This document shows, in pieces, positions 12,889 to 50,329 of a DNA stretch of 64,000 nt; position 1 is the first letter of the stretch, and the number at the start of each line of letters is the position of its first letter. The notes beneath the pieces were generated by a model that did no database searches, had not been told where the DNA came from, and saw nothing but the letters and a program-made list of their open reading frames with translations. Origin of the DNA: an uncultured delta proteobacterium (GTDB taxonomy: Bacteria > Desulfobacterota > BSN033 > UBA1163); contig CAVPSJ010000012.1 of assembly GCA_963708295.1 (NCBI GenBank), positions 1 to 64,000 of the forward strand. The letters are read 5' to 3'. The position numbers and the translations under genes are program-made.

Positions 12889-13385
12889 AAATCAGTGCAA
12901 AATTAACATTGCAAAGTTAACAATTAGCAATGAAATATGGAAAACCTATTACAAAATCAACACTGCAAAATTAGCACTTAGCAATGAGCGCTAAAACTAA
13001 TCAATTGTCAGATCGATTACTCGATTTTGCTGTAGAAGTGATCAAAATTACGGATGCGTTACCGAATACGGTTGCAGGAAGGCACGTCGGCGGTCAGCTG
13101 ATAAGAGCAGGGACATCTTGCGGCTCAAATTATGAAGAAGCTTGTGGTGCCGAATCCAGATCTGACTTTTCCCATAAGATGAGTATTGTGCTCAAAGAAC
13201 TAAAGGAATCACGGTTCTGGCTAAGGTTAATTTCCAGAACTGAAATGCTTACCAATAATCGCACTGAGCGCGTCCTAGATGAATGCCAACAACTGTGTGC
13301 CATTGTTGCGAAAAGTATTCTTACGGCAAAGCGGAGGAGAACTTCAAATTGATAACTTTGCAATGGTAATTTTGCAATTTGCATT
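12889..13385. mobile_element. Four-helix-bundle gene cassette bounded by inverted 7-nt repeat arrays (family A: AnTGCAA/AnTTARC)
   Basis: Left arm AGTGCAA AATTAAC ATTGCAA AGTTAAC (12894-12921) matches the reverse complement of 13351-13378 at 25/28. Mobility is inferred. Confidence 0.6.
12984..13352 (+). CDS. Four helix bundle protein (TIGR02436 / 23S rRNA IVP-like family)
   Basis: QLIRAGTSCGSNYEEA...ESRSDFSHKMSIVLKELKESRFWL signature. Confidence 0.9.
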   Translation: MSAKTNQLSDRLLDFAVEVIKITDALPNTVAGRHVGGQLIRAGTSCGSNYEEACGAESRSDFSHKMSIVLKELKESRFWLRLISRTEMLTNNRTERVLDECQQLCAIVAKSILTAKRRRTSN

Positions 13386-13408
13386 TATATTTTGAAGGGG
13401 AGGCTTTC

Positions 13409-14293
13409 ATGGAACTTTTTTTACAACTTTTTATCACGGGAATTCTCGTCGGGAGCATCTATGCCCTGGTGGCATTAGGGTGGACCCTCATCTATAAATG
13501 CTCTGGCGTCCTCAACCTGGCCATGGGTGAACTGACCTTGATGGGGGCATATGTCTGTCTGACCTTGTACCAATGGCATATCCCATTCATATTAGCCCTC
13601 CTCATCACTCTTGTCATCGGGTTTGCCTTGGGGATCTTAACCGAAATTCTCTTCTTGAGGCCCATGGTAGGAGAACCGGTATTGAGCGTCATCATGGTCA
13701 CCGTGGGGCTCTCTTTTTTCTTCAAAGGGTTGGTGGAGTTGGTCTGGGGGACGGATACCGTTATTTTCGCTCCTCCGGTATTTGCAATCGAACCCATATT
13801 CATAGGAAAAATTGTCGTCGGTCAGGTTTACCTCTGGGCTTTCGTTGCGTCGATCATCCTTCTTCTCGCCTTTGTCACTTTCTTCAAATATACAAAGTGG
13901 GGGTTATCCATGCAGGCAACGGCGGATGACGAGATGGCCGCTCTATCTCTTGGTGTGAACGCTAAGATTGTTTATGCCCTTGCCTGGGCCATTGCCTTTA
14001 TGGCGGCAGGAGTCGGCGGAACTTTATTGGGAAACATCAATGGTCTTAATATTTCTGTGGGCCACCTGGGTTTATTAGTTCTCCCCGCCGTCGTTTTGGG
14101 CGGTCTTAACTCCGTCCCCGGGGCCATCGTGGGGGGTCTGGTGATTGGAGTTCTTCAGAATTTGGCAGACGGCTATTTAAGTCGTTTTACGCCCGGTGGG
14201 GTGAAAGAGGTTTTCCCCTTCGCGGTGATGGTCGTCGTCTTGTTGTTCAAGCCCTACGGACTCTGGGGTTGGATACGAATTGAACGCGTCTAA
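13409..14293 (+). CDS. livH: LIV-family ABC permease (LivH-like)
   Basis: GSIYALVALG, VLNLAMG, VLGGLNS, KPYGLWG. Confidence 0.92.
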   Translation: MELFLQLFITGILVGSIYALVALGWTLIYKCSGVLNLAMGELTLMGAYVCLTLYQWHIPFILALLITLVIGFALGILTEILFLRPMVGEPVLSVIMVTVGLSFFFKGLVELVWGTDTVIFAPPVFAIEPIFIGKIVVGQVYLWAFVASIILLLAFVTFFKYTKWGLSMQATADDEMAALSLGVNAKIVYALAWAIAFMAAGVGGTLLGNINGLNISVGHLGLLVLPAVVLGGLNSVPGAIVGGLVIGVLQNLADGYLSRFTPGGVKEVFPFAVMVVVLLFKPYGLWGWIRIERV

Positions 14294-14386
14294 AAAATCA
14301 TTGCAAATTGAAAAGTTAGCAATGCAAATTTATCAGTGAAGAAAAACGTTATCTAATTTAACAATGCTAATTTTGCATTTTGCATT
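14294..14386. repeat. Empty family-A inverted heptamer cassette
   Basis: AAAATC ATTGCAA ATTGAAA AGTTAGC AATGCAA ... GCTAATT TTGCATT TTGCATT, running from the stop codon to the RBS. Confidence 0.8.
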
Positions 14387-14397
14387 GGGAGGTTAAG

Positions 14398-22345: not shown

Positions 22346-22454
22346 AAAATCAATGCAAATTGCAAAGTTAGCAGTGCAAAGTTAGCATTGAAAAAACCGC
22401 TATCTTTCATTGTTAATTGCTAATTTTACAATGCTAATTTTGCAATGAGTTTTT
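22346..22454. repeat. Empty family-A inverted heptamer cassette
   Basis: AAAATC AATGCAA ATTGCAA AGTTAGC AGTGCAA AGTTAGC ... GCTAATT TTACAAT GCTAATT TTGCAAT GAGTTTT. Confidence 0.85.
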
Positions 22455-28302: not shown

Positions 28303-28411
28303 ATGGAGTGTTGGAGTGATGGAGTAATGGAATGATGGAGCAACATAAAGACAAATGAAACGATAAAAAATTAAGCCCAACACTCCAGTACTCCAATACT
28401 CCATGACTCCA
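28303..28411. repeat. Inverted octamer cassette, family C (TGGAGTRW / WYACTCCA)
   Basis: TGGAGTGT TGGAGTGA TGGAGTAA TGGAATGA ... CCAACAC TCCAGTAC TCCAATAC TCCATGAC TCCA. Confidence 0.85.
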
Positions 28412-28428
28412 AGAAATTTGATTGAATC

Positions 28429-34101: not shown

Positions 34102-34171
34102 TTGGAATATTGGAGTACTGGAGTAATGGAGTGTTGGGTTAACCCATCATTCCAATACTCCATTACTCCAT
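34102..34171. repeat. Inverted octamer cassette, family C, near loop-less hairpin
   Basis: TGGAATAT TGGAGTAC TGGAGTAA TGGAGTGT TGGGTT|AACCCA TCATTCCA ATACTCCA TTACTCCA. Confidence 0.88.
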
Positions 34172-34204
34172 TGGATGGATGATAGCACTGAGGAAGAATA
34201 ACGG

Positions 34205-36436
34205 ATGGAAAAATTGGAAGAGGTGGTCCCTGAAGCTTTAGTGATCGGCGCAGGCATTGCCGGGATGCAGACGGCCCTGGACATCGCCGACAAGGGGTTT
34301 AGAGTCCACTTGGTGGAGAAGGAAACTTGCATCGGGGGCCACATGGCCCAACTGGATAAAACCTTCCCGACCCTGGATTGTTCTGCCTGCATCAGCACGC
34401 CGAAGATGGTCGATACGGCGAATCATCCCAACATTGACCTTCTGACCTACTCCGAGATCGTTGGGGTTGAGGGAAAGCCCGGGCATTTCAAGGTAACGGT
34501 CAGGAAGAAACCTCGTTTTGTCGATGTGGCCAAATGCACGGGCTGCGGCGACTGTGCAGCCCAGTGCCCCGTCACCCTCCTCAATGAATTCGATATGGGA
34601 TTAGGGAAAAGGAAAGCCATTTACATCTCTTTCCCCCAGGCTGTTCCGCTCAAATATACGATGGACCGCCGGGGAACCTCCCCTTGCACGACCACCTGTC
34701 CCCTCCACTGCAATGCCCAGGGCTATGTGGCTCTCATCTCCCAGGGCAAGTTTAAGGAAGCCCTTCAACTGGTGCGCGAAAGGCTCCCCTTTCCCGGAAT
34801 TTTGGCCTATGCCTGTGCTCACCCCTGCGAGAGGGAGTGCAAGCGAATCGAGACGGATCATCCCGTCTCGATTTGCCGTCTTAAGAGATTCCTTGTCGAT
34901 CACGTAGAAGAACCCGAGTTTGAATTTACGATTCCCGAAGAGAAAGAGAAAAAGATTGCGATCGTGGGCGGAGGGCCCTCGGGACTCACCGCCGCATACG
35001 ACCTGAGAAGAATGGGCTACCGCGTTACTCTTTTTGAGTCCAAGAACGAGCTGGGCGGTCTCCTCACCCACGGTTTCCCCTCCTATCGTCTTCCGAGGAA
35101 GGTCGTGGAAAGGGATCTCGCGGTCATCGATAAAATGGGAATAGAGGTGAAGTGCAACACCCGGGTGGGAAAAGACGTCTCCCCGGAGACGCTCCGGCAA
35201 TCTTATGACGCGATCTTTATCGCGGGTGGCATCACCGGAGCAGAATCGATCCTGAACACTTTCAAAGGCCTGAAGAGGACAAGAAGAGGAACGATTCAGG
35301 TCCATCCCATTTCCCTGGAAACGGACGTCGAGGGAATCTTCGCGGGCGGGGATATGGTGACCGGTCCCGGGACCATAATCGAATCGATGGCCCATGGAAG
35401 AAAGGCAGCCCTGTCGATCGATCGATACCTTCGCGGGGAAGACCTGCTTCAAGGAAGGGAATCCGAGGGGACACAAATCTCCCCTTTGAGAAGCCTTCTC
35501 CCTTATTCAAAGAGGATGGACCGAGAAGTTCTGCCCGACATGGTGAAACCCCTCGTCGCCAGCCTCACCGCGGAAGAGGCGATGGAGGAGGCAAGGCGTT
35601 GTCTCAATTGTGCAGGGTGCTCGGATTGCGGAGAATGTGCCAAGGCCTGTCAACCCAAGGCCGTCAACTACGGGATGAAAGAAGAGATCGTTGAATTTCA
35701 CGTGGGATCCATCGTCCTCGCCACCGGGTTCGATCCTTTTAATCCGAAGCTGAAACCCGAATTCGGCTACGGAATCTATCCCAATGTCCTCCATGGTCTT
35801 GAAATCGAGCGTCTCTGTTCCGCCTCCGGTCCAACCAAAGGTGAGATTATCATCCAGGGGATGAAACCCAAAGAGGTGGTTTTTATTCATTGCGTCGGGT
35901 CGAGGGATAAATCGGCCGGCAACGAATACTGTTCGAGAGTGTGCTGCATGTATACGGCGAAGCAAGCCCATCTCCTCAGGGATAAGATTCCCGATGCGAA
36001 AATCACCGTCCTCTACATGGATGTGAGGGCCTTTGGAAAAGGATTTGAGGAATTCTACGAGCGGGTCCAAAAAGAGAGGATCGTTTACCGAAGAGGAAAT
36101 CCCTCCGAGGTCTATCGAAGAAACGGAAAACTGGTCGTCCGGGCTGAGGACACTCTCTTGGGGGAGCCTTTTGAATTAGAAGCGGACCTGGTCGTCTTGG
36201 CCTCCGGGCTCGTCCCCCGAAGGGAAGAAGATCTTATGAAGAACATGCTGGGACTGGAGAACTCTGCTGACAAGTTCTATGCAGAGGCGCCTGGCCTCGA
36301 TCCGATCATGACCAAAAAGGAAGGGATCTTTCTCGCGGGATGCTGCCAGGGCCCTAAAGACATCCCGGATACCGTGGCCCAGGCGAGTGGTGCAGCTTCT
36401 TTGGCCTGCGCGATTTTAGCCAGAGGGAAAAAATAA
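34205..36436 (+). CDS. hdrA: HdrA-like (HdrL-type) flavoprotein with a GltD-like insertion; lacks the N-terminal HdrA domain and the C-terminal ferredoxin
   Basis: IGAGIAG, LDKTFPTLDCSAC, CVGSRD..YCSRVCC, GPKDIP. Insertion SPCTTTCP...GGGPSG. Confidence 0.88.
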   Translation: MEKLEEVVPEALVIGAGIAGMQTALDIADKGFRVHLVEKETCIGGHMAQLDKTFPTLDCSACISTPKMVDTANHPNIDLLTYSEIVGVEGKPGHFKVTVRKKPRFVDVAKCTGCGDCAAQCPVTLLNEFDMGLGKRKAIYISFPQAVPLKYTMDRRGTSPCTTTCPLHCNAQGYVALISQGKFKEALQLVRERLPFPGILAYACAHPCERECKRIETDHPVSICRLKRFLVDHVEEPEFEFTIPEEKEKKIAIVGGGPSGLTAAYDLRRMGYRVTLFESKNELGGLLTHGFPSYRLPRKVVERDLAVIDKMGIEVKCNTRVGKDVSPETLRQSYDAIFIAGGITGAESILNTFKGLKRTRRGTIQVHPISLETDVEGIFAGGDMVTGPGTIIESMAHGRKAALSIDRYLRGEDLLQGRESEGTQISPLRSLLPYSKRMDREVLPDMVKPLVASLTAEEAMEEARRCLNCAGCSDCGECAKACQPKAVNYGMKEEIVEFHVGSIVLATGFDPFNPKLKPEFGYGIYPNVLHGLEIERLCSASGPTKGEIIIQGMKPKEVVFIHCVGSRDKSAGNEYCSRVCCMYTAKQAHLLRDKIPDAKITVLYMDVRAFGKGFEEFYERVQKERIVYRRGNPSEVYRRNGKLVVRAEDTLLGEPFELEADLVVLASGLVPRREEDLMKNMLGLENSADKFYAEAPGLDPIMTKKEGIFLAGCCQGPKDIPDTVAQASGAASLACAILARGKK

Positions 36437-36530
36437 ATGGAGGAATGGAGTAACGGAGTACTGGGTGACAAAACCTGTTCATCTTCAATTCCTTTCAAAA
36501 CCCGTCACTCCAATACTCCATCACTCCGGT
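36437..36530. repeat. Inverted octamer cassette, family C
   Basis: ATGGAGGA ATGGAGTA ACGGAGTA CTGGG ... CCCG TCACTCCA ATACTCCA TCACTCC. Confidence 0.82.
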
Positions 36531-36547
36531 AATCCAGTATTGGTGGT

Positions 36548-38524: not shown

Positions 38525-38579
38525 AGAGTTGGGAGTTCGGAGTTCCACATTTTTTTCAATCCGCAATCTGAAATCTGAA

Positions 38580-39104
38580 ATGGAAAAGGGTCTGATCCAG
38601 GTCTATACGGGAAACGGAAAGGGAAAGACAACGGCTGCGCTGGGCCTTGCCCTCAGGGCCGTCGGCCATGGATTGCAGGTCCTCGTCATTCAATTTATGA
38701 AAGGAAACATCAATTACGGGGAAGTGGAATCCTCGAAAAAGCTCTCTCCCGACCTGACGATCATACAGTCGGGCCGGGAGACGTTCGTCTCAAAAACGAA
38801 CCCGGATCCGGTGGACATCCGATGGGCTCAGGACGGGTTTGATTTTGCGAAAAAGGCGATGGCCGATGAGGCCTACGACATCGTCATCCTCGACGAAATC
38901 ATTGTCGCCGTAGATTACGGCTTGATCCCTCTCTCCGATCTCCTTCAACTTCTCGATACCAAACCCAAGGGTGTTGAGCTTATTCTCACGGGAAGGAATG
39001 CCAGGCCTGAAATATTGGAAAAGGCGGATTTGGTTACCGAAATGGTGGAACAAAAACACTACTACCGGAACGGCGTCTCAGCTCGCGAAGGCGTAGAAGT
39101 TTGA
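38580..39104 (+). CDS. cobO: Cob(I)alamin adenosyltransferase (CobO/BtuR)
   Basis: VYTGNGKGKTTAALG, QFMKG, ILDE, LTGR, ADLVTEM. Confidence 0.94.
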   Translation: MEKGLIQVYTGNGKGKTTAALGLALRAVGHGLQVLVIQFMKGNINYGEVESSKKLSPDLTIIQSGRETFVSKTNPDPVDIRWAQDGFDFAKKAMADEAYDIVILDEIIVAVDYGLIPLSDLLQLLDTKPKGVELILTGRNARPEILEKADLVTEMVEQKHYYRNGVSAREGVEV

Positions 39105-39228: not shown

Positions 39229-40902
39229 ATGCTCAAAGAGGACAAGCTGAAAGACATCGAGCAGGAAAAGAAAAGGTGGCTGCAGGATCTGGCAGAAATC
39301 CTCCGAGAGACCCCTGAACGCCTCCCGCGATTTAGCACGATCTCTGATCTTGAGATCAAAAACCTTTACACTCCGGAAGACCTGAAAGAAATTGACTATA
39401 TCAGTGACATCGGCTTTCCGGGCGTCTATCCTTTCACACGGGGGGTTCAGCCCTCCATGTATCGAGGAAGGCTCTGGACCATGCGAATGTTTTCAGGATT
39501 AGGTGGCCCGGAGGAAACGAATAGCCGCTTCCGCTATCTCCTGTCTCAGGGAGAAACGGGCCTTTCCGTCGCCTTCCACTATCCGACGCTGATGGGATAT
39601 GACAGCGATTCCCCGATGTCAAAGGGGGAGATCGGGAAGTGTGGCGTGGCTGTCGACACATTAAAGGACATGGAGATTCTCTTTGAAGGAATTCCCTTGG
39701 GCAAAGTGACCACTTCCATGACGATCAATCCGCCTGCTTCAATCTTGCTGGCGATGTACATTGTCGTGGCGGAGAAACAGGGTGTGAGCAGAAGGGAAAT
39801 CGGAGGGACCATTCAAAATGACATGCTGAAGGAATTTATCGCCCAGAAAACCTTCATGCTGCCGCCGAAGCCATCCATCCGAATCATTGTCGATACCATT
39901 GAATTTTGCACCCGGGAAGTCCCCCGTTGGAACACGATCAGCATCAGCGGCTATCATATCCGTGAGGCCGGCGCCACCGCCGTTCAGGAACTCGCCTTCA
40001 CTCTGGCCGATGGGATTGCCTATGTCGCGGCCGCCTTGGAGAGAGGTTTGGAGGTGGATGATTTTGCCCCGCGGCTCTCTTTTTTCTTCGATTCTCATAT
40101 TGATTTCTTTGAAGAGATCGCCAAGTTCAGGGCCGCTCGAAGAATGTGGTCGAAGATCATGCGCGAGCGTTTCATGGCGAAGAACCCCCGTTCCTGGATG
40201 CTTCGCTTCCACACCCAAACGGCGGGCTGTTCCTTGACGGCGCAGCAGCCTTTTAACAACGTCGTCCGCACCGCCTCCGAGGCGATGGCAGCCGTCCTGG
40301 GGGGAACCCAGTCTCTTCACACCAATTCACTCGACGAAACCTATGCGATCCCCACCGAGGAAGCGGTCACGATCGCATTGCGGACACAACAGATCCTCGC
40401 AGAAGAAACCGGCGTGGCCAATACGATTGATCCTATGGCGGGGTCCTATTTTGTCGAAACCCTCACTTCCCAGATGGAGCAACAGGCCTGGGAATATATC
40501 CGTCGGATTGATGAAATGGGAGGAATGGTCACAGCGGTTGAGCGAGGTTTTCCCCAGGCAGAAATCGCCGATTCAGCCTATAAGTTTCAGAAACAGATTG
40601 ACTCCGGCGAAAAGGTCATGGTGGGTGTCAATAAACATGCGACAGACCATCCCCCCATCACGATTTGGAGAATGGATCCTGCGGTTGAAGAAAGACAGCT
40701 GGCAAGGCTCCGTCGGGTGAAACGGGATCGGGACAATCAAAAAGTGAAAGGACTCCTCCATCAGATTCTGACTGCTTCCAAGAATGGTGAAAATCTCATG
40801 CCCCATATCATCAACGCTGTCAGGGAATATGCCACGATTCAAGAAATCTGTGACGTGTGGCGGGATGTCTTTGGGAGATACACAGACCCGGGATATTTTT
40901 AA
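39229..40902 (+). CDS. icmA: B12-dependent acyl-CoA mutase large subunit, isobutyryl-CoA-mutase-like (IcmA)
   Basis: WTMRMFSG (Phe at the MCM Tyr89 position), KEFIAQK (Gln at the MCM Arg207 position), [20 protein letters not shown]. Confidence 0.8.
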
Positions 40903-40995
40903 TTCGGAATGCAGAGTGCGGATTGCGGAATAAAACTCTTGAAATCTTAAATTTGAAGTTTTTGGTTTACCTTCCGAATTCCGCACCCCGAATTC
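40903..40995. repeat. Inverted heptamer cassette, family E (GAATGCG/GATTGCG ... TTCCGCA)
   Basis: GGAATGC AGAGTGC GGATTGC GGAAT ... TTCCGAA TTCCGCA CCCCGAA TT. The same left arm recurs at 41432-41460. Confidence 0.75.
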
Positions 40996-41431: not shown

Positions 41432-41660
41432 CGAATGCAGAATGCGGATTGCGGAATAAAATCATTCAAATAATAGATTCCCTCCGTCCGTGCCCTCGCC
41501 CATCACGAGGAGTATGGGCTCGGCAACGGGAATCTAAAATCCAAAGGAAGGAGGAAAGGGTAAGGACTTTAAGGCTAAGAGGCGAGAAATAATGGCAATT
41601 TCTTGATGCGATGCGCTAGGCCCTTTGCCTCCCGGCAGGCAGGCGCTATGCCTATCTCGG
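41432..41660. repeat. Composite repeat region (family-E arm, TAGATTCCC..GGGAATCTA hairpin, GCGCTA/GGCAGGCAGG remnants)
   Basis: GAATGCAGAATGCGGATTGCGGAATAAAA; TAGATTCCC (41474) / GGGAATCTA (41528); GCGATGCGCTAGG..CCGGCAGGCAGGCGCTATGC. Confidence 0.55.
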
Positions 41661-43304: not shown

Positions 43305-43880
43305 ATGGTGAAGAAAAAAATCCAGATAAGGAAAAAGGCAGCAACAAAGAAGAAAGTCCGACCGAAGAAGAAAGTTCAGGCGATGGAAAAAACAGAGACC
43401 AAATTCATTGGGAAGGTCACTAAAATACGTCAAAAAGAGCCGGCCACCGTCATCGAATGGCCCCGATCGATGACTCATGTCCATACCTATGGCATGCTCT
43501 CTCCTTTTTTTGAAGGTCTCAGGAAAGGAGAGTTACGAGCCACCTTCTGTCCAAATAACAACTGCCCGGAAAAACGCCTCTGGATCCCGCCGCGGGCCCA
43601 TTGCCCGGATTGCCATGCCGAGATGACCTGGAAATCTTTGGCCAATCCAGTGATCGGCAAGATCTACACCTTTACCGAAGTTGTTTATGCCGGGACCGGA
43701 ATCGAGCTCTCTACCCCCTACTGGCAAGTCGACGTCGAAATTCCAGGGTTGGCCACCATCCCCAAGAGTTATTTGTTATACGGAAAGCCCTACATTGGGA
43801 TGAAGGTCAAGGCGGAATTTAGGACAAAGACCCCCAGCAATACGGTGCTCGATTATTACTGGGTCCCTTATGAAGGATAG
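43305..43880 (+). CDS. Zn-ribbon/OB-fold (DUF35) partner of the thiolase-like protein
   Basis: FFEGL..G.L..CPNNNC..PPRAHCPDC, GKIYTFT, IGMKVKAEF. Confidence 0.88.
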   Translation: MVKKKIQIRKKAATKKKVRPKKKVQAMEKTETKFIGKVTKIRQKEPATVIEWPRSMTHVHTYGMLSPFFEGLRKGELRATFCPNNNCPEKRLWIPPRAHCPDCHAEMTWKSLANPVIGKIYTFTEVVYAGTGIELSTPYWQVDVEIPGLATIPKSYLLYGKPYIGMKVKAEFRTKTPSNTVLDYYWVPYEG

Positions 43881-44380
43881 AAACGCGACGCGGAGACTCG
43901 GAGACACGGAGAGGCCGAAATGCCTGATATCAGATCGTTCAGAGAACTTAAAGTCTGGAAAAAGGCAATGGATCTTGCTATGGAGATATTTGAAACAACC
44001 AAGGGATTTCCAATGGAAGAAAGATATTCTCTGACTGATCAAATTCGACGTTCTTCGCGGTCCGTTCCGACAAATATTGCGGAAGCATGGCGCAAGCGGC
44101 GATATCCGGCTGCCTTTGTTAGTAAGCTGAATGATGCCGAAGGCGAATCGGCAGAAACTCAGACTCATCTGGAGATGGCAAAACGTTGTGGCTATATTGA
44201 TTCGACATCAGCCTCTCGTCTTGATAATTCGTATGAAGAAATCATGGCCATGCTTGTTTCTATGGTCGCACGGCCTCAACAATGGGCCATCCGGCCATCT
44301 AACAACCCGAAATTTTCAAAATAAGGTGTGAGAAATTCTCCACATCTCCGTGTCTCCGCGTCTCTATGTCTCCGTGTCTG
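43881..44380. mobile_element. Four-helix-bundle gene cassette bounded by inverted 8-nt repeat arrays (family F: GACACGGA / TCCGTGTC)
   Basis: Left GACGCGGA GACTCGGA GACACGGA GA (43887-912); right TCTCCACA TCTCCGTG TCTCCGCG TCTCTATG TCTCCGTG TC (44337-378). Mobility is inferred. Confidence 0.6.
43920..44324 (+). CDS. Four helix bundle protein (23S rRNA IVP/S23-like)
   Basis: FRELKVWKKAM..FPMEERYSLTDQIRRSSRSVPTNIAE..F..L..A.G...ET. Confidence 0.92.
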   Translation: MPDIRSFRELKVWKKAMDLAMEIFETTKGFPMEERYSLTDQIRRSSRSVPTNIAEAWRKRRYPAAFVSKLNDAEGESAETQTHLEMAKRCGYIDSTSASRLDNSYEEIMAMLVSMVARPQQWAIRPSNNPKFSK

Positions 44381-44400
44381 TTACATTTGGGAGGTAACCT

Positions 44401-45570
44401 ATGGCTCTCGATTTTGATTTGAATGACGAGCAGCAAATGCTTCGAAAGATGGTCCGAAGTTTTGCTGAAAAAGAGATCGCTCCCGTTGCTCAGGAACTGG
44501 ATGACAAAGAAGAATTTTCCTACTCGCTGACAAAGCGGATGGGAGACCTTGGCCTCTTTGGCCCTTTTGTCCCTGAGACATATGGTGGAAGCAATGTCGG
44601 TTATGTCTCCTACATTATCGCCGTGGAAGAGGTTGCGAGAATCGATGGGTCACAAGCGGCCACCCTTGCCGCCGGGAACTCGCTCGGAATTTCACCCATC
44701 TATTATTACGGGAATGATGAGCAGAAGAAAGAGTGGCTTCCTGAGCTCTGCGCAGGAAAAGCCCTTTCCTCCTTTGGTCTGACCGAACCCAACGCCGGCT
44801 CGGATGCGGGAGCATCCCAAACAAAGGCGGTTCTGGAAGGAGACCGGTGGGTCATCAATGGCTCGAAAATCTTTATAACCAATTCGACGACCGACATCAG
44901 CAAGGTCTGTGTGGTCCAGGCCGTCACAGGAAAAAGAGAAGACGGAAGAACCGAACTCTCTTGCATTCTGGTTCCGAACGGGACGCCGGGGTTCACAACA
45001 AAGACCATGCATGGGAAGATGGTCTGGAGGTCTTCCAATACGGGAGAACTTTATTTCACCGACTGCAAAGCTCCCAAAAGGAATCTTCTCGGCCGGCGCG
45101 GAGACGGCTTTCATCAGATGCTGGCTACCCTGGACGGCGGAAGATTGAGCATCGCCGCCATGGGACTGGGCGGCGCTCAGGGGGCTTTCGAGCTGGCGCT
45201 TAAATATGCCACCGAGCGGGAGCAATTCGGAAGGCCGATCGGTTCCTTTCAGGTCAATTCCTTCAAGCTGGCGGACATGGCCACAGAAATTGAATTGGCA
45301 AGGCTATTGCTCTATAAGGCCTGCTGGTTGTGTGAGCAGCATCGGCCTTTCTCCATGGAATCGGCGATGGCGAAGATGTTCTGCTCCGAGATGTATCATC
45401 GTGTGGCCAACCAGGCAGTTCAACTTCATGGAGGGTATGGTTTGATGAAAGAATATGCCGTCGAGCGCCATTACCGAAACCAGAAGTTACTGGATATTGG
45501 AGAGGGAACTTCAGAGGTTCAGAGAATTGTCATCGCCCGGCACATCGGAGTCCCGGGAAGAGCCCTCTAA
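44401..45570 (+). CDS. Acyl-CoA dehydrogenase (short/branched-chain type)
   Basis: FGLTEPNAGSD, INGSKIFITN, GGRLSIAA, HGGYG, IGEGTSEVQR. Confidence 0.95.
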   Translation: MALDFDLNDEQQMLRKMVRSFAEKEIAPVAQELDDKEEFSYSLTKRMGDLGLFGPFVPETYGGSNVGYVSYIIAVEEVARIDGSQAATLAAGNSLGISPIYYYGNDEQKKEWLPELCAGKALSSFGLTEPNAGSDAGASQTKAVLEGDRWVINGSKIFITNSTTDISKVCVVQAVTGKREDGRTELSCILVPNGTPGFTTKTMHGKMVWRSSNTGELYFTDCKAPKRNLLGRRGDGFHQMLATLDGGRLSIAAMGLGGAQGAFELALKYATEREQFGRPIGSFQVNSFKLADMATEIELARLLLYKACWLCEQHRPFSMESAMAKMFCSEMYHRVANQAVQLHGGYGLMKEYAVERHYRNQKLLDIGEGTSEVQRIVIARHIGVPGRAL

Positions 45571-45577
45571 CGTTGGG

Positions 45578-45672
45578 GGTGATGAATGATGAGTTATGAA
45601 TCAAAACCCTTGGTTGTTAACCCTGAATTCTTAACTCCCTAACTCTCACCTCTTCATTCTCAACTCTTAATT
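45578..45672. repeat. Inverted heptamer cassette, family D
   Basis: GGTGATG AATGATG AGTTATG AAT ... AATTCTT AACTCCC TAACTCT CACCTCT TCATTCT CAACTCT TAATT. Confidence 0.7.
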
Positions 45673-48502: not shown

Positions 48503-48565
48503 GAACTCCGAAGCACGAAATACGATTTTCGGATTTCGATATTTGAATTTCGGATTTAAGATTTC
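48503..48565. repeat. Inverted heptamer cassette, family B (short)
   Basis: AACTCCGAAGCACGAAAT ... TTCGGATTTCGATATTTGAATTTCGGATTT. Confidence 0.8.
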
Positions 48566-48578
48566 TTATGAGGTGAAC

Positions 48579-50234
48579 ATGTCCAAGACCATTCGAGATG
48601 AATTTGAACGATGGGAAAAAACGACCCTCAACAAAACCCTTTCCAAGGCGCCTGAACGAGAGCCTTCGTTCAAAACCACTTCCCATATTGAATTAAAACG
48701 CCTCTATACCCCCCTGGACGTCGCGGAGTTGGATTACTGCGATCAGTTGGGATTCCCCGGGGAGATCCCATTCACAAGGGGAGTTCAGCCCACCATGTAC
48801 CGGGGGCGGTTCTGGACCATGCGCCAGTATGCAGGGTTTGCCACTCCCGAAGAGACGAACAAACGATACAAGTACCTCCTGGAGCATGGGCAAACCGGGT
48901 TGAGCGTGGCCTTCGACCTCCCAACGCAGATTGGTTACGATTCCGACCATCCTTTGTCCGACGGGGAAGTGGGCAAGGTCGGGGTGGCGATCGATACCCT
49001 CAAGGACATGGAGATCCTTTTCGAGGGTATCCCTCTGGATAAGGTCTCCACTTCCATGACGATCAACGCCACGGCCGCCATCCTCCTGACGATGTACCTT
49101 GCTGTCGCAGAAAAACAGGGAGTTCAGACTGACGTTCTCCAGGGGACGATACAGAACGATATTTTGAAAGAATACGCCGCCAGAGGGACCTACATCTATC
49201 CGCCTCCCGAATCGATGCGCATCGTGACCGATATTTTCGCATTTTGCAAAGATCACGCCCCCCGATGGAATACCATCAGCATCAGCGGGTATCACATGCG
49301 TGAAGCAGGCTGCACGGCTGTCCAGGAAGTAGCCTTTACCCTGGCCGACGGGATTGCTTACGTCGAGGCGGCGATTCGGGCGGGTCTGGATGTGGACTCT
49401 TTTGCCTCCAGGCTGGCCTTCTTCTTCTGCTGCCATAACACCTTCATCGAAGAAGTGGCCAAATTCAGGGCGGCCCGAAGGCTCTGGTCAAAAATAATGA
49501 GGGAACGATTCAGGGCCAAAAAAGACGAATCCTGCATGCTGAGGTTCCATACCCAGACAGCCGGGTGTTCCCTGACCGCCCAACAACCCGACAACAACGT
49601 GGTGAGGGTAGCTTTCCAGGCCTTAGCTGCCGTGTTGGGCGGAACGCAATCACTCCACACAAATTCCAAGGATGAAGCGTATGCACTGCCTACTGAAGAT
49701 TCTGTGAGGATCGCCCTGAGAACCCAGCAGCTCATTGCCTACGAAAGCGGGGTTGCGGATATGATCGATCCCCTTGGAGGATCTTATGCAGTGGAAGCTC
49801 TCACGGAGGAGATAGAAAGAAAATCCAAGGAATACATCGAAAAGATCGAAGCCATGGGCGGAGCCGTGAAAGCGATCGAATCGGGTTACATCCAGGGGGA
49901 GATTGGGGAAAGCGCCTACCAATATCAAAAAGAGATCGAAGCCAAGAAGCGGATCATTGTCGGATTGAACCAGTTTCAGGTTGAAGAGGAGCCTCTGAGG
50001 AATATCCTTCGTATCAAGCCCGAGATGGAACGATACCAGAAGGAAAAGCTGGCCAGGGTAAAGAAAGAGAGAAACAATGCGAAAGTGAAAGAAAGCTTGG
50101 CTGATTTGAAAAGGACGGCCGAGGGGACAGAGAATCTGGTGCCTCCGATTTTGGAAGCGGTCAAGGCTTATGCAAGCCTGGGAGAAGTCTCCGATACCTT
50201 AAGAGAAGTGTTTGGAGAATATAGAGAACGATGA
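48579..50234 (+). CDS. Methylmalonyl-CoA mutase large subunit
   Basis: WTMRQYAGF (Tyr), [15 protein letters not shown] (Arg), SISGYH. Confidence 0.88.
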
Positions 50235-50316
50235 TTTCAAATTGCAAATTGCAGATCGCAAATTGAAATTCTTTGAATGAACTTTCAATCTGAAATTTGA
50301 AATCCGCAATTTGAAA
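50233..50316. repeat. Inverted heptamer cassette (ATTGCAA/ATTTGAA type)
   Basis: ATTTCAA ATTGCAA ATTGCAG ATCGCAA ATTGAAA ... TTTCAAT CTGAAAT TTGAAAT CCGCAAT TTGAAAT. Confidence 0.82.
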
Positions 50317-50329
50317 TGGGGGTGAAGAA

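Follow-up and report, generated by a model that had tools for sequence, protein, structure and literature searches.

The 64,000-nucleotide stretch analyzed here (the window) is positions 1-64000 of contig C12 in the assembly of an uncultured delta proteobacterium (G000; 4.95 Mb in 20 contigs, 91.5% complete). Its positions 43887-44379 are occupied by a small gene of the PF05635/TIGR02436 four-helix-bundle family, set between two inverted arrays of an 8-nt word. The gene and its two repeat arms are called the cassette below. All features of the cassette and both of its neighbors are on the forward strand. The upstream neighbor (43305-43880), taken from the list of open reading frames (ORFs), encodes 191 residues that have no match in Pfam or NCBIfam, and its TAG stop codon at 43878-43880 forms the left edge of the insertion slot. 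The right edge is the gene for an acyl-CoA dehydrogenase (44401-45570; Pfam Acyl-CoA_dh_N, _M and _1), which starts with the ATG at 44401. Orthologs of the dehydrogenase gene are present in 30 of the 31 genomes of the same class that were used for comparison, and in 10 congeners they are adjoined by orthologs of the 191-residue gene (77-84% DNA identity).

The left arm (43887-43912) begins 6 nt past the upstream stop codon. It is composed of 3.2 units of GACRCGGA, namely GACGCGGA, GACTCGGA and GACACGGA followed by GA, which in another register read GGAGACNC. The repeat search reports it as three copies at 8-nt spacing, GACGCGGAGA, GACTCGGAGA and GACACGGAGA. The right arm (44337-44379) begins 12 nt past the stop codon of the cassette's own ORF. 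Its 43 nt amount to about 5.4 units of TCTCCNYG, which is the left-arm word in reverse complement; the repeat search finds this arm as four overlapping 19-nt copies, again spaced by 8 nt. Tandem Repeats Finder (TRF) gives a period of 8 on both sides, with 3.2 copies on the left and 4.4 copies on the right (44345-44379). When the register is shifted, both arrays are inverted copies of one word, GGAGACRC. The last unit of the left arm contains a Shine-Dalgarno-like GGAGAGG (43908-43914), which is located 5 nt before the ATG of the four-helix-bundle gene (43920-44324) and presumably acts as its ribosome-binding site (RBS). A GGGAGG at 44389-44394, 10 nt past the right arm, is the putative RBS of the dehydrogenase gene. 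The arms fill the interval between the upstream stop codon and the RBS of the next gene. An earlier note on this DNA, made without database searches, had described a four-helix-bundle paralog set between three GACRCGGA units and five inverted ones, between a stop codon and an RBS; the repeat search, TRF and the profile searches bore this description out in every detail.

The two arms are 85% complementary over 26 nt, and 95% complementary over a 20-nt core. Their inversion was assessed by the local score of the upstream flank against the reverse-complemented downstream flank. This score is 35 for the cassette, compared with a median of 16 and a 99th percentile of 25 for 339 mismatched pairings, in which the upstream flank of one cassette was combined with the downstream flank of another; the 99th percentile served as the threshold of significance. 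In the predicted RNA fold of a 515-nt stretch, the arms pair around the whole ORF at -174.1 kcal/mol. Shuffled sequences have a mean of -146.4 (z = -4.45), and none of 100 shuffles folds as well. The GGAGAGG in front of the ORF is paired within the predicted stem. Rfam has no match in 43600-44600, and a promoter and terminator scan found no promoter- or terminator-like site at the arms. A promoter of the cassette's own was considered and rejected: the lone promoter-like site is inside the gene and does not rise above shuffled sequence. The cassette contains no ORF besides the four-helix bundle, and hence no transposase gene. It is not inserted in helix 45 or helix 25 of 23S rRNA, where intervening sequences (IVSs) with related genes reside, but between the 191-residue ORF and the dehydrogenase gene.

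The protein has 134 residues and belongs to the family of 23S rRNA IVS proteins, PF05635/TIGR02436, which is large and of unknown function. It scores 125.2 bits against PF05635 (cut-off 33.8), covering profile positions 1-105 of 106, and 119.9 bits against the TIGR02436 "four helix bundle protein" model (cut-off 24). Similarity to proteins of solved structure is found for PDB entries 2gsc (Xcc0516, E = 1.8e-14) and 2rld (E = 4e-8), each of which was deposited with five chains. Excerpts of PMC4990558 report the Xanthomonas homolog as a homopentamer; Xcc0516 is reportedly a homopentamer of four-helix bundles. With a pI of 9.3 the protein is basic, close to the family median of 9.1. A conserved polar stripe at helical spacing consists of Q41, R44, S48, N52 and E55, and is accompanied by E79. 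Across 112 family members the Q, S, N and E residues of this stripe are found in 93-97%, and E79 is found in all. The helix-2 motif GxxRxxxSxxxNxxE, which is given in passages of PMC3936711, fits the window protein with Q replacing G. Q41, S48, N52, E55 and E79 are near-invariant in the 112 members and the basic residues are not. Judged from these alignments, the near-invariant residues look more like a polar active or binding site than like generic, charge-based binding of nucleic acid.

The PF05635/TIGR02436 family is present in all 31 genomes of the comparison set, with 221 matches. The cassette sample was composed of 30 loci and 100 further regions around listed matches (4 of them arm-only), while 71 PF05635 matches lay outside the listing and the sample. 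It yielded 134 ORF hits, 119 of them full-length. Of these, 113 have at least 80 nt on both sides, and 112 are unique. The flanks are inverted above the 99th percentile of the control for 77 of the 113 full-length genes. The left-arm period in these 77 cassettes is 7 in 40, 8 in 18, 6 in 9, 9 in 5 and some other value in 5, and the median arm measures 29 nt, or about 3.9 units. The upstream neighbor is co-directional in 62 of 68 cases, the downstream neighbor in 54 of 66 and both in 46 of 63. The median distance from the upstream stop codon to the left arm is 9 nt, and that from the right arm to the first start codon of the next ORF is 12 nt. By eye, nearly all of the 13 PF05635 matches of the present genome are inside inverted short-period arrays, each with a different word.

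The arms and the gene are one discrete unit. In non-syntenic pairs of cassettes with at least 75% protein identity, BLASTN homology starts and stops at the outer edges of the arms, and there is no match in 900 nt of flank. One cassette (L081) and its counterpart on contig C7 of the present genome, for instance, are 91% identical over a region that starts at -72 and stops at +37, the arm edges being -65 and +36; no high-scoring segment pair falls in the flank. The same boundaries are seen for L139 and L143 (-25 to +35; arm edges -29 and +35) and for L068 and L020 (-30 to +22; arm edges -31 and +22); in all, nine pairs besides the first are bounded by arm edges. The cassette at 43887 behaves in the same way. 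Homology to L164, a 77%-identical locus in an unrelated context of a metagenome-assembled genome (MAG) labeled "Deltaproteobacteria", starts exactly at 43887 and the flanks are unmatched.

The repeat word goes with the protein clade. Pairs drawn from the 112 unique cassettes, non-syntenic ones only, were scored as having the same word if the arm-to-arm score was at least 30, synteny being judged solely by BLASTN of 750-nt flanks. Below 45% protein identity, 0.3-0.5% of 5877 pairs share a word: 0.5% of the 2666 pairs below 25% identity, 0.4% of the 2526 pairs at 25-35% and 0.3% of the 685 pairs at 35-45%. The share is 9% at 45-55% identity (120 pairs) and 11% at 55-65% (53 pairs), rises to 76% at 65-75% (46 pairs) and 93% at 75-85% (27 pairs), and reaches 100% above 85% (9 pairs). 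The nearest relative of the cassette at 43887 in the class sample (L095) is just 58% identical, and its arms have the same period and the core CGGAGA. More relatives were obtained by scanning one genome per species. The best 80 of 552 (56-92% protein identity) were retained, and 74 of these have enough flank. GGAGACRC, called as at least two units with one mismatch allowed, occurs on either side in 49 of the 74 relatives. The 74 come from at least 11 named phyla, and the 49 with the word represent Planctomycetota, Acidobacteriota, Verrucomicrobiota, Chloroflexota, Thermodesulfobacteriota, Bacteroidota, Myxococcota, Nitrospirota and other phyla. The word is upstream in 43 of the relatives, its reverse complement is downstream in 43, and both are present in 37. 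The 111 control cassettes of other clades have it upstream in none and downstream in one. The period is 8 in 51 of the 62 loci of this subtype that have significant arms, and 7 dominates in the class-wide sample. The earlier note had taken its two cassettes as a sign of a general system, with repeat families that co-vary with protein clades, and had suggested comparing flanking arrays with protein relatedness across genomes. That comparison has essentially been carried out by the analyses above: the shares among pairs and the subtype counts support the proposal, and the inverted layout recurs at most full-length genes.

Within the subtype, the word also clusters on the protein tree, although loosely and coarsely: its presence and absence require 14 changes, whereas 300 shuffles need 21.1 on average and never fewer than 15. 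Much of the co-variation signal is what would be expected of any co-inherited mobile unit. The arms have the same polarity in 43 cases and the opposite orientation once. Since an inverted pair reads alike on both strands, polarity was dropped as evidence for the RNA strand, and the 43-to-1 ratio is an intrinsic or inherited trait. In the unit logo, the search pattern preselects positions 1-5, which leaves positions 6-8 as the informative ones (C 0.67, R 0.90, C 0.60).

Nine independent, non-syntenic pairs within clades allow the words to be compared with silent sites. Four-fold degenerate sites are identical at 126 of 290 positions (0.43) and the consensus words at 57 of 67 (0.85); the baseline for words of unrelated clades in their best rotation is 0.53. 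The test is small and slippage is outside its model. Because the words surpass four-fold sites and the word is kept across phyla, these results argue that the sequence of the word itself is constrained, and not merely its pairing.

The slot between the 191-residue gene and the dehydrogenase gene lacks the cassette in all 10 congeners that have both flanking genes. Their spacers are 35-139 nt long; eight contain empty hairpins with other words and two contain a single arm. The hairpin has GGATTCAAG-type units in G002, G004 and G005, TTCGGAG in G011 and G009, CATAGGG in G008 and GTGGAA-type units in G006 and G010, and the single arm, in G003 and G012, is composed of CTCCGAA. Two more congeners, G001 and G014, have a TTCGGAG hairpin upstream of the dehydrogenase gene; the search found no 191-residue gene upstream of it, and they are not counted among the ten. 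In G024, which belongs to another family, the spacer is 11 nt. The words are patchily distributed on the tree of the dehydrogenase, on which the present genome is sister to G002. Moreover, G010 and G004 have an almost identical flanking gene and completely different hairpins. Drift of the hairpin word in situ was rejected on account of this contrast and of the patchy distribution. Upstream of the dehydrogenase ortholog of G018 (L039), the loop of a GGATTCAAG-type hairpin contains an unrelated G/C-rich palindrome, which suggests that the hairpin loops are themselves insertion targets.

Another MAG (L163) does have the cassette at this very site, with a protein that is 92% identical and flanks that are 78-81% identical. 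Environmental sequences, taken from Logan contigs, which cannot show RNA ends, give a hint of presence and absence among close strains. In wetland metagenome contigs the flanks have a depth of 80-970 and 43913-44292 has a depth of 0-18. Three contigs join 43874-43876 directly to 44400-44401; in one of these, 379 nt of the downstream gene are covered at 99.5% identity. A joint of 43912 to 44345, which would represent an allele with empty arms, was set aside as too weak because it is found in one contig with 26 nt on the shorter side. Small shares of the cassette sequence are present in two RNA-library runs. In the run X17, a 151-nt contig matches the right arm (44337-44378), but its 105 nt upstream of the match are unrelated; the probable source is a different cassette or array of the community that has this word too.

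Slots are re-used elsewhere in the genome. The positions of 50 cassettes in relatives map to 25 sites of the present genome. At 14 of these sites at least two relatives have cassettes, and at 6 of the 14 the cassettes represent at least two protein clades. The present genome has an empty hairpin at three of the sites (C7:54.1 kb, C8:311 kb and C14:127.6 kb), with yet another word than the cassette of the relative. At two other sites the relative's word is kept, in a gene-less remnant at C4:69.6 kb and in a solo left array at C12:139.0 kb; both are visibly decayed cassettes that have lost the gene. The histidine kinase/response regulator junction at C11:140.4 kb (140365-140445) is a bare 17-nt spacer from stop to start codon in the present genome. 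In G003 (L129) and G014 (L148) this junction accommodates two unrelated cassettes, one of which has non-periodic inverted arms.

The window contains a second cassette at 12896-13379, also on the forward strand. Its heptamer arrays on the left (12896-12983) are followed by the gene (12984-13355) and by the right arm (13353-13379). Its word is TGCAAAA/TTAGCAA with a period of 7, and its protein scores 88.3 bits against TIGR02436. Two congeners (L151 and L155) have it in synteny and with the same word. As the earlier note had stated, protein subtype, repeat sequence and period (8 compared with 7) all differ between the two cassettes of the window while the architecture is the same; the proteins are 18% identical.

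Short-period arrays are abundant in the genome as a whole. Of period 5-16 there are 2046 arrays by TRF, among which the periods 7 (522 arrays) and 8 (311 arrays) stand out as peaks. There are 135 inverted pairs of arrays, 82 of which are separated by less than 150 nt. Of 770 arrays away from family genes, 159 match arm words of cassettes in other genomes (12 of 770 for reversed controls). This fits derivation of the arrays from cassettes as well as capture of genes by arrays. One-armed GGAGACRC arrays that have neither an inverted partner nor a gene are found between genes in G004 and G010 (L061-L064).

Most gene junctions of the window likewise have empty hairpins or solo arrays of 7-8-nt units. 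They are located at 12896-14390, 22361-22447, 28303-28412, 34103-34172, 36436-36536, 38526-38581, 40901-40990, 41433-41457, 45580-45672, 48523-48565 and 50234-50317. Neighboring junctions often share a word, as in the case of GGAGTRAT-type units at 28.3, 34.1 and 36.4 kb, TGCAAAA/TTAGCAA at 12.9, 14.3 and 22.4 kb, and GCGGAAT at 40.9 and 41.4 kb, where the arrays bracket the gene for the small subunit of a methylmalonyl-CoA-mutase-like pair. Outside the window, an array-dense island at C15:196500-209000 (L161) has five PF05635 matches in 10 kb and nested arrays of different words. It also contains a PIN gene that stands alone and a toxin-antitoxin pair of the Phd-PIN type. A GIY-YIG ORF (199454-199777; Pfam, 51.5 bits) splits one of the four-helix-bundle genes of the island (199362-199505 plus 199790-199969). 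At C14:41702-42397 (L162), heptamer arms of CCAAATT/ATTTGGA surround a DUF559 endonuclease-like gene (119.7 bits). Thus, the arms can carry other small cargo of nuclease families.

The closest known counterpart is the ORF-bearing IVS of 23S rRNA. As passages of PMC4990558 describe it, the Coxiella burnetii IVS is bounded by a terminal inverted-repeat stem of 28 bp that is cut by RNase III, the S23p ORF is located in the loop, and the cut removes an AG-rich Shine-Dalgarno region; three tandem GACAGAT heptamers, whose number varies between strains, are found upstream of the ORF. The Leptospira IVS is cited in the same paper. The cassette shares with the Coxiella element, as portrayed there, a PF05635-family ORF enclosed by a terminal stem, tandem short repeats upstream, a Shine-Dalgarno sequence in or next to the stem and a sporadic distribution that suggests horizontal transfer. 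Unlike the IVS, it lies outside rRNA, between two protein-coding operon genes, and its arms are composed wholly of tandem 8-nt units. Those passages of PMC4990558 do not speak of a word specific to the clade, of slots used repeatedly or of elements that decay to empty hairpins. The cassette is most likely the operon-resident counterpart of the ORF-bearing IVS. Since it does not reside in rRNA, it is treated here as an element that would work like an IVS and not as a member of that class.

Tandem heptamers dispersed between genes form another group of relevant systems. They are known from cyanobacteria as short tandemly repeated repetitive (STRR) sequences, and Elhai reportedly described small dispersed repeats in Nostoc. 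GGGAATC heptamers of Xanthomonas often form convergent pairs (70-75 pairs) capable of making stem-loops and are retained between the same genes in related species, according to sections of PMC4692102, and TAACTGA repeats have been described in Beggiatoaceae, cyanobacteria and Bacteroidetes (PMC4679880). These two papers draw no link to a gene family: 'helix bundle', 'S23' and 'intervening' are terms that occur in neither. The arrays described here resemble those repeats in being intergenic and tandem with 7-nt units, but differ from them in that they bracket a gene, that the word follows the protein clade and that a single genome has many word families. In the REPIN-RAYT system, which is said to have been worked out by Bertels and Rainey, a single gene is flanked by inverted clade-specific repeats and gene-less hairpin copies are dispersed between genes. 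The co-variation of gene clade and flanking repeat family is shared with that system. However, the protein here is a four-helix bundle without a transposase fold, the repeat is a short tandem word and not a single palindrome, and the dispersed arrays are independent of a resident gene of the matching clade. The cassette does not have the hallmarks of a classical transposon or of a miniature inverted-repeat transposable element (MITE): there is no transposase gene, and no target-site duplication was visible at the single site that allowed a clean comparison (C11:140.4 kb). Members of the family have also been found inside cas loci, which parts of PMC3936711 interpret as a possible CRISPR-Cas-associated function. 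In a search that mostly covered literature outside subscription journals, no published description was found of a gene-in-repeat-arms unit or of clade-specific words, and the family was mentioned in three settings only: within intervening sequences of rRNA, as distantly related to Avd, and in cas loci, where its presence is unexplained.

The reading that we favor, and consider probable, is that 43887-44379 is a selfish passenger cassette of the IVS type located outside rRNA, composed of a promoterless gene and two inverted arrays, whose 8-nt word is specific to the clade. Sitting between one operon gene's stop codon and the next RBS, it would be transcribed by read-through. In the transcript the arms would pair into a stem of about 26-36 bp with mismatches, so that in vivo the ORF would be closed into a loop and its own Shine-Dalgarno sequence covered. 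By analogy with the ORF-bearing 23S rRNA IVS, such a stem may be a substrate of RNase III. On this reading the whole unit is gained, lost and swapped at preferred intergenic slots, and crosses phylum boundaries. Where the gene is lost, empty repeat hairpins or solo arrays are left, and these account for part of the many 7-8-nt arrays of the genome. As the word is kept far better than silent sites, a sequence-specific reader of it can be expected; the likeliest candidate would be the cassette's own basic protein, of which a solved relative is reportedly a pentamer, with one protomer bound per unit.

This can be carried further, to a proposal that we consider possible but rather doubtful. The four-helix-bundle proteins would be the sequence readers of transposase-less mobile cassettes, each pentamer reading its own 6-9-nt word on the folded arms, with every protomer on one unit and roughly 4-5 units in an arm. 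Through the conserved polar Q-S-N-E/E stripe they would help the cassette to be copied, exchanged or retained at operon slots. The unexplained surplus of heptamer and octamer arrays in many bacterial genomes would stem from decayed cassettes, and the 23S rRNA IVS would be the rRNA branch of the group.

Several results weigh against the passenger cassette. At C11:140.4 kb no target-site duplication is visible in the comparison with G003, the one clean pair of filled and empty sites, although a single site is weak evidence. The protein family has no known catalytic or mobility function, and 3 of the 13 PF05635 matches in the present genome are broken or split, which implies that the protein is dispensable at least sometimes. 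The arms are not universal: 36 of the 113 genes lack significant ones, some of these showing arrays by eye and others none. Among the 74 subtype relatives, 25 do not have the exact word, most of them having kindred purine-rich octamers such as GGGGAGAG, GGGGTGAG and GGAGTAAC. The arm mismatches of the window cassette are at variable positions of the unit, which makes the stem imperfect. The sole evidence of expression is a 283-nt RNA-library contig (43897-44179, 97.5% identity) that possibly represents DNA carry-over. Related genomes are not independent samples. Finally, dispersed arrays are not enriched for the words of resident genes, there being 2.4 per clade with a resident (n = 7) and 5.2 per clade without one (n = 29), and GGAGACRC has no further array in this genome. 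These figures leave a REPIN/RAYT-like dependence on the resident gene, with gene-less copies spreading in trans, unsupported.

The repeat hairpins might instead be primary, similar to repetitive extragenic palindromic (REP) sequences or MITEs, and be spread or kept by the host. The gene would then be captured cargo with a function unrelated to the repeats, and co-variation would reflect co-inheritance alone. Empty hairpins do outnumber cassettes, as the closely spaced inverted pairs show, and the commonest word families of the genome have no intact resident gene. The arms or their surroundings also contain other cargo, namely the DUF559 gene and the PIN/Phd pairs of the array-rich island, and the Xanthomonas heptamer pairs are presented with no gene in the relevant sections of PMC4692102. 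If genes were captured at random, however, clade and word should not stay linked, but the word accompanies the protein over at least 11 phyla. The words are also conserved above silent sites, and two empty or solo arrays are visibly decayed cassettes. We consider this explanation unlikely. Another one, to which we give quite little credence, is a device beneficial to the host, in which an intercistronic hairpin tunes mRNA stability or translation within the operon and the protein regulates in trans the hairpins that have its word. The short distances of the arms from the preceding stop codon and the following start codon would suit such a device, as would the constraint on the word. Among 17 family members (f1) in which the spacer upstream of the dehydrogenase gene was read, 14 have a hairpin and 2 a single arm, and 1 (G013) contains unread bases. 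The words at the same slot are nevertheless unrelated in species as close as G010 and G004. Furthermore, the cassette is absent in the sister species and apparently also in close strains, family genes decay, and a resident gene is not accompanied by a surplus of hairpins with its word.

Two further explanations concern the origin of the protein and of the repeats. Avd, a pentameric and basic protein of diversity-generating retroelements, is a distantly related four-helix bundle, and the window protein has weak similarity to it (25.1 bits for PF22296, 22.5 bits for NF033474). If it were an Avd, or another partner of a reverse transcriptase, the repeats could be by-products of retro-mobility. 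However, both scores are below the cut-offs (40 and 80, respectively), there are no template or variable repeats, and the neighbors are metabolic genes. The search for RVT_1, which was positive in 3 of 14 control genomes, found no match, and hence no reverse transcriptase, in the present genome at 91.5% completeness. Such an origin is very improbable. The commonness of arrays of period 7 and 8 (522 and 311 of 2046) might raise the suspicion that the arms are chance slippage microsatellites unrelated to the gene. This is refuted by the inversion of the arms above the control level, by the recurrence of the layout at 77 of 113 genes and by the tracking of protein subtype by the word in many phyla.

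The comparisons show that the PF05635/TIGR02436 gene makes up half of a discrete unit, which is completed by a stem of clade-specific tandem repeats. This unit crosses phyla while keeping its word, and turns over at fixed operon slots. It ties together the rRNA intervening sequences, the unexplained heptamer and octamer arrays of bacteria, and the PF05635/TIGR02436 family. For annotation this means that such genes should not be taken as functional partners of their neighbors. The label 'function unknown' becomes a question that can be addressed at the bench, namely whether the protein reads its own word. The answer would tell apart a selfish unit that has a recognition protein of its own and mere cargo in hairpins that the host tolerates. 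If the proteins are indeed sequence readers, a recognition code from protein to word would follow.

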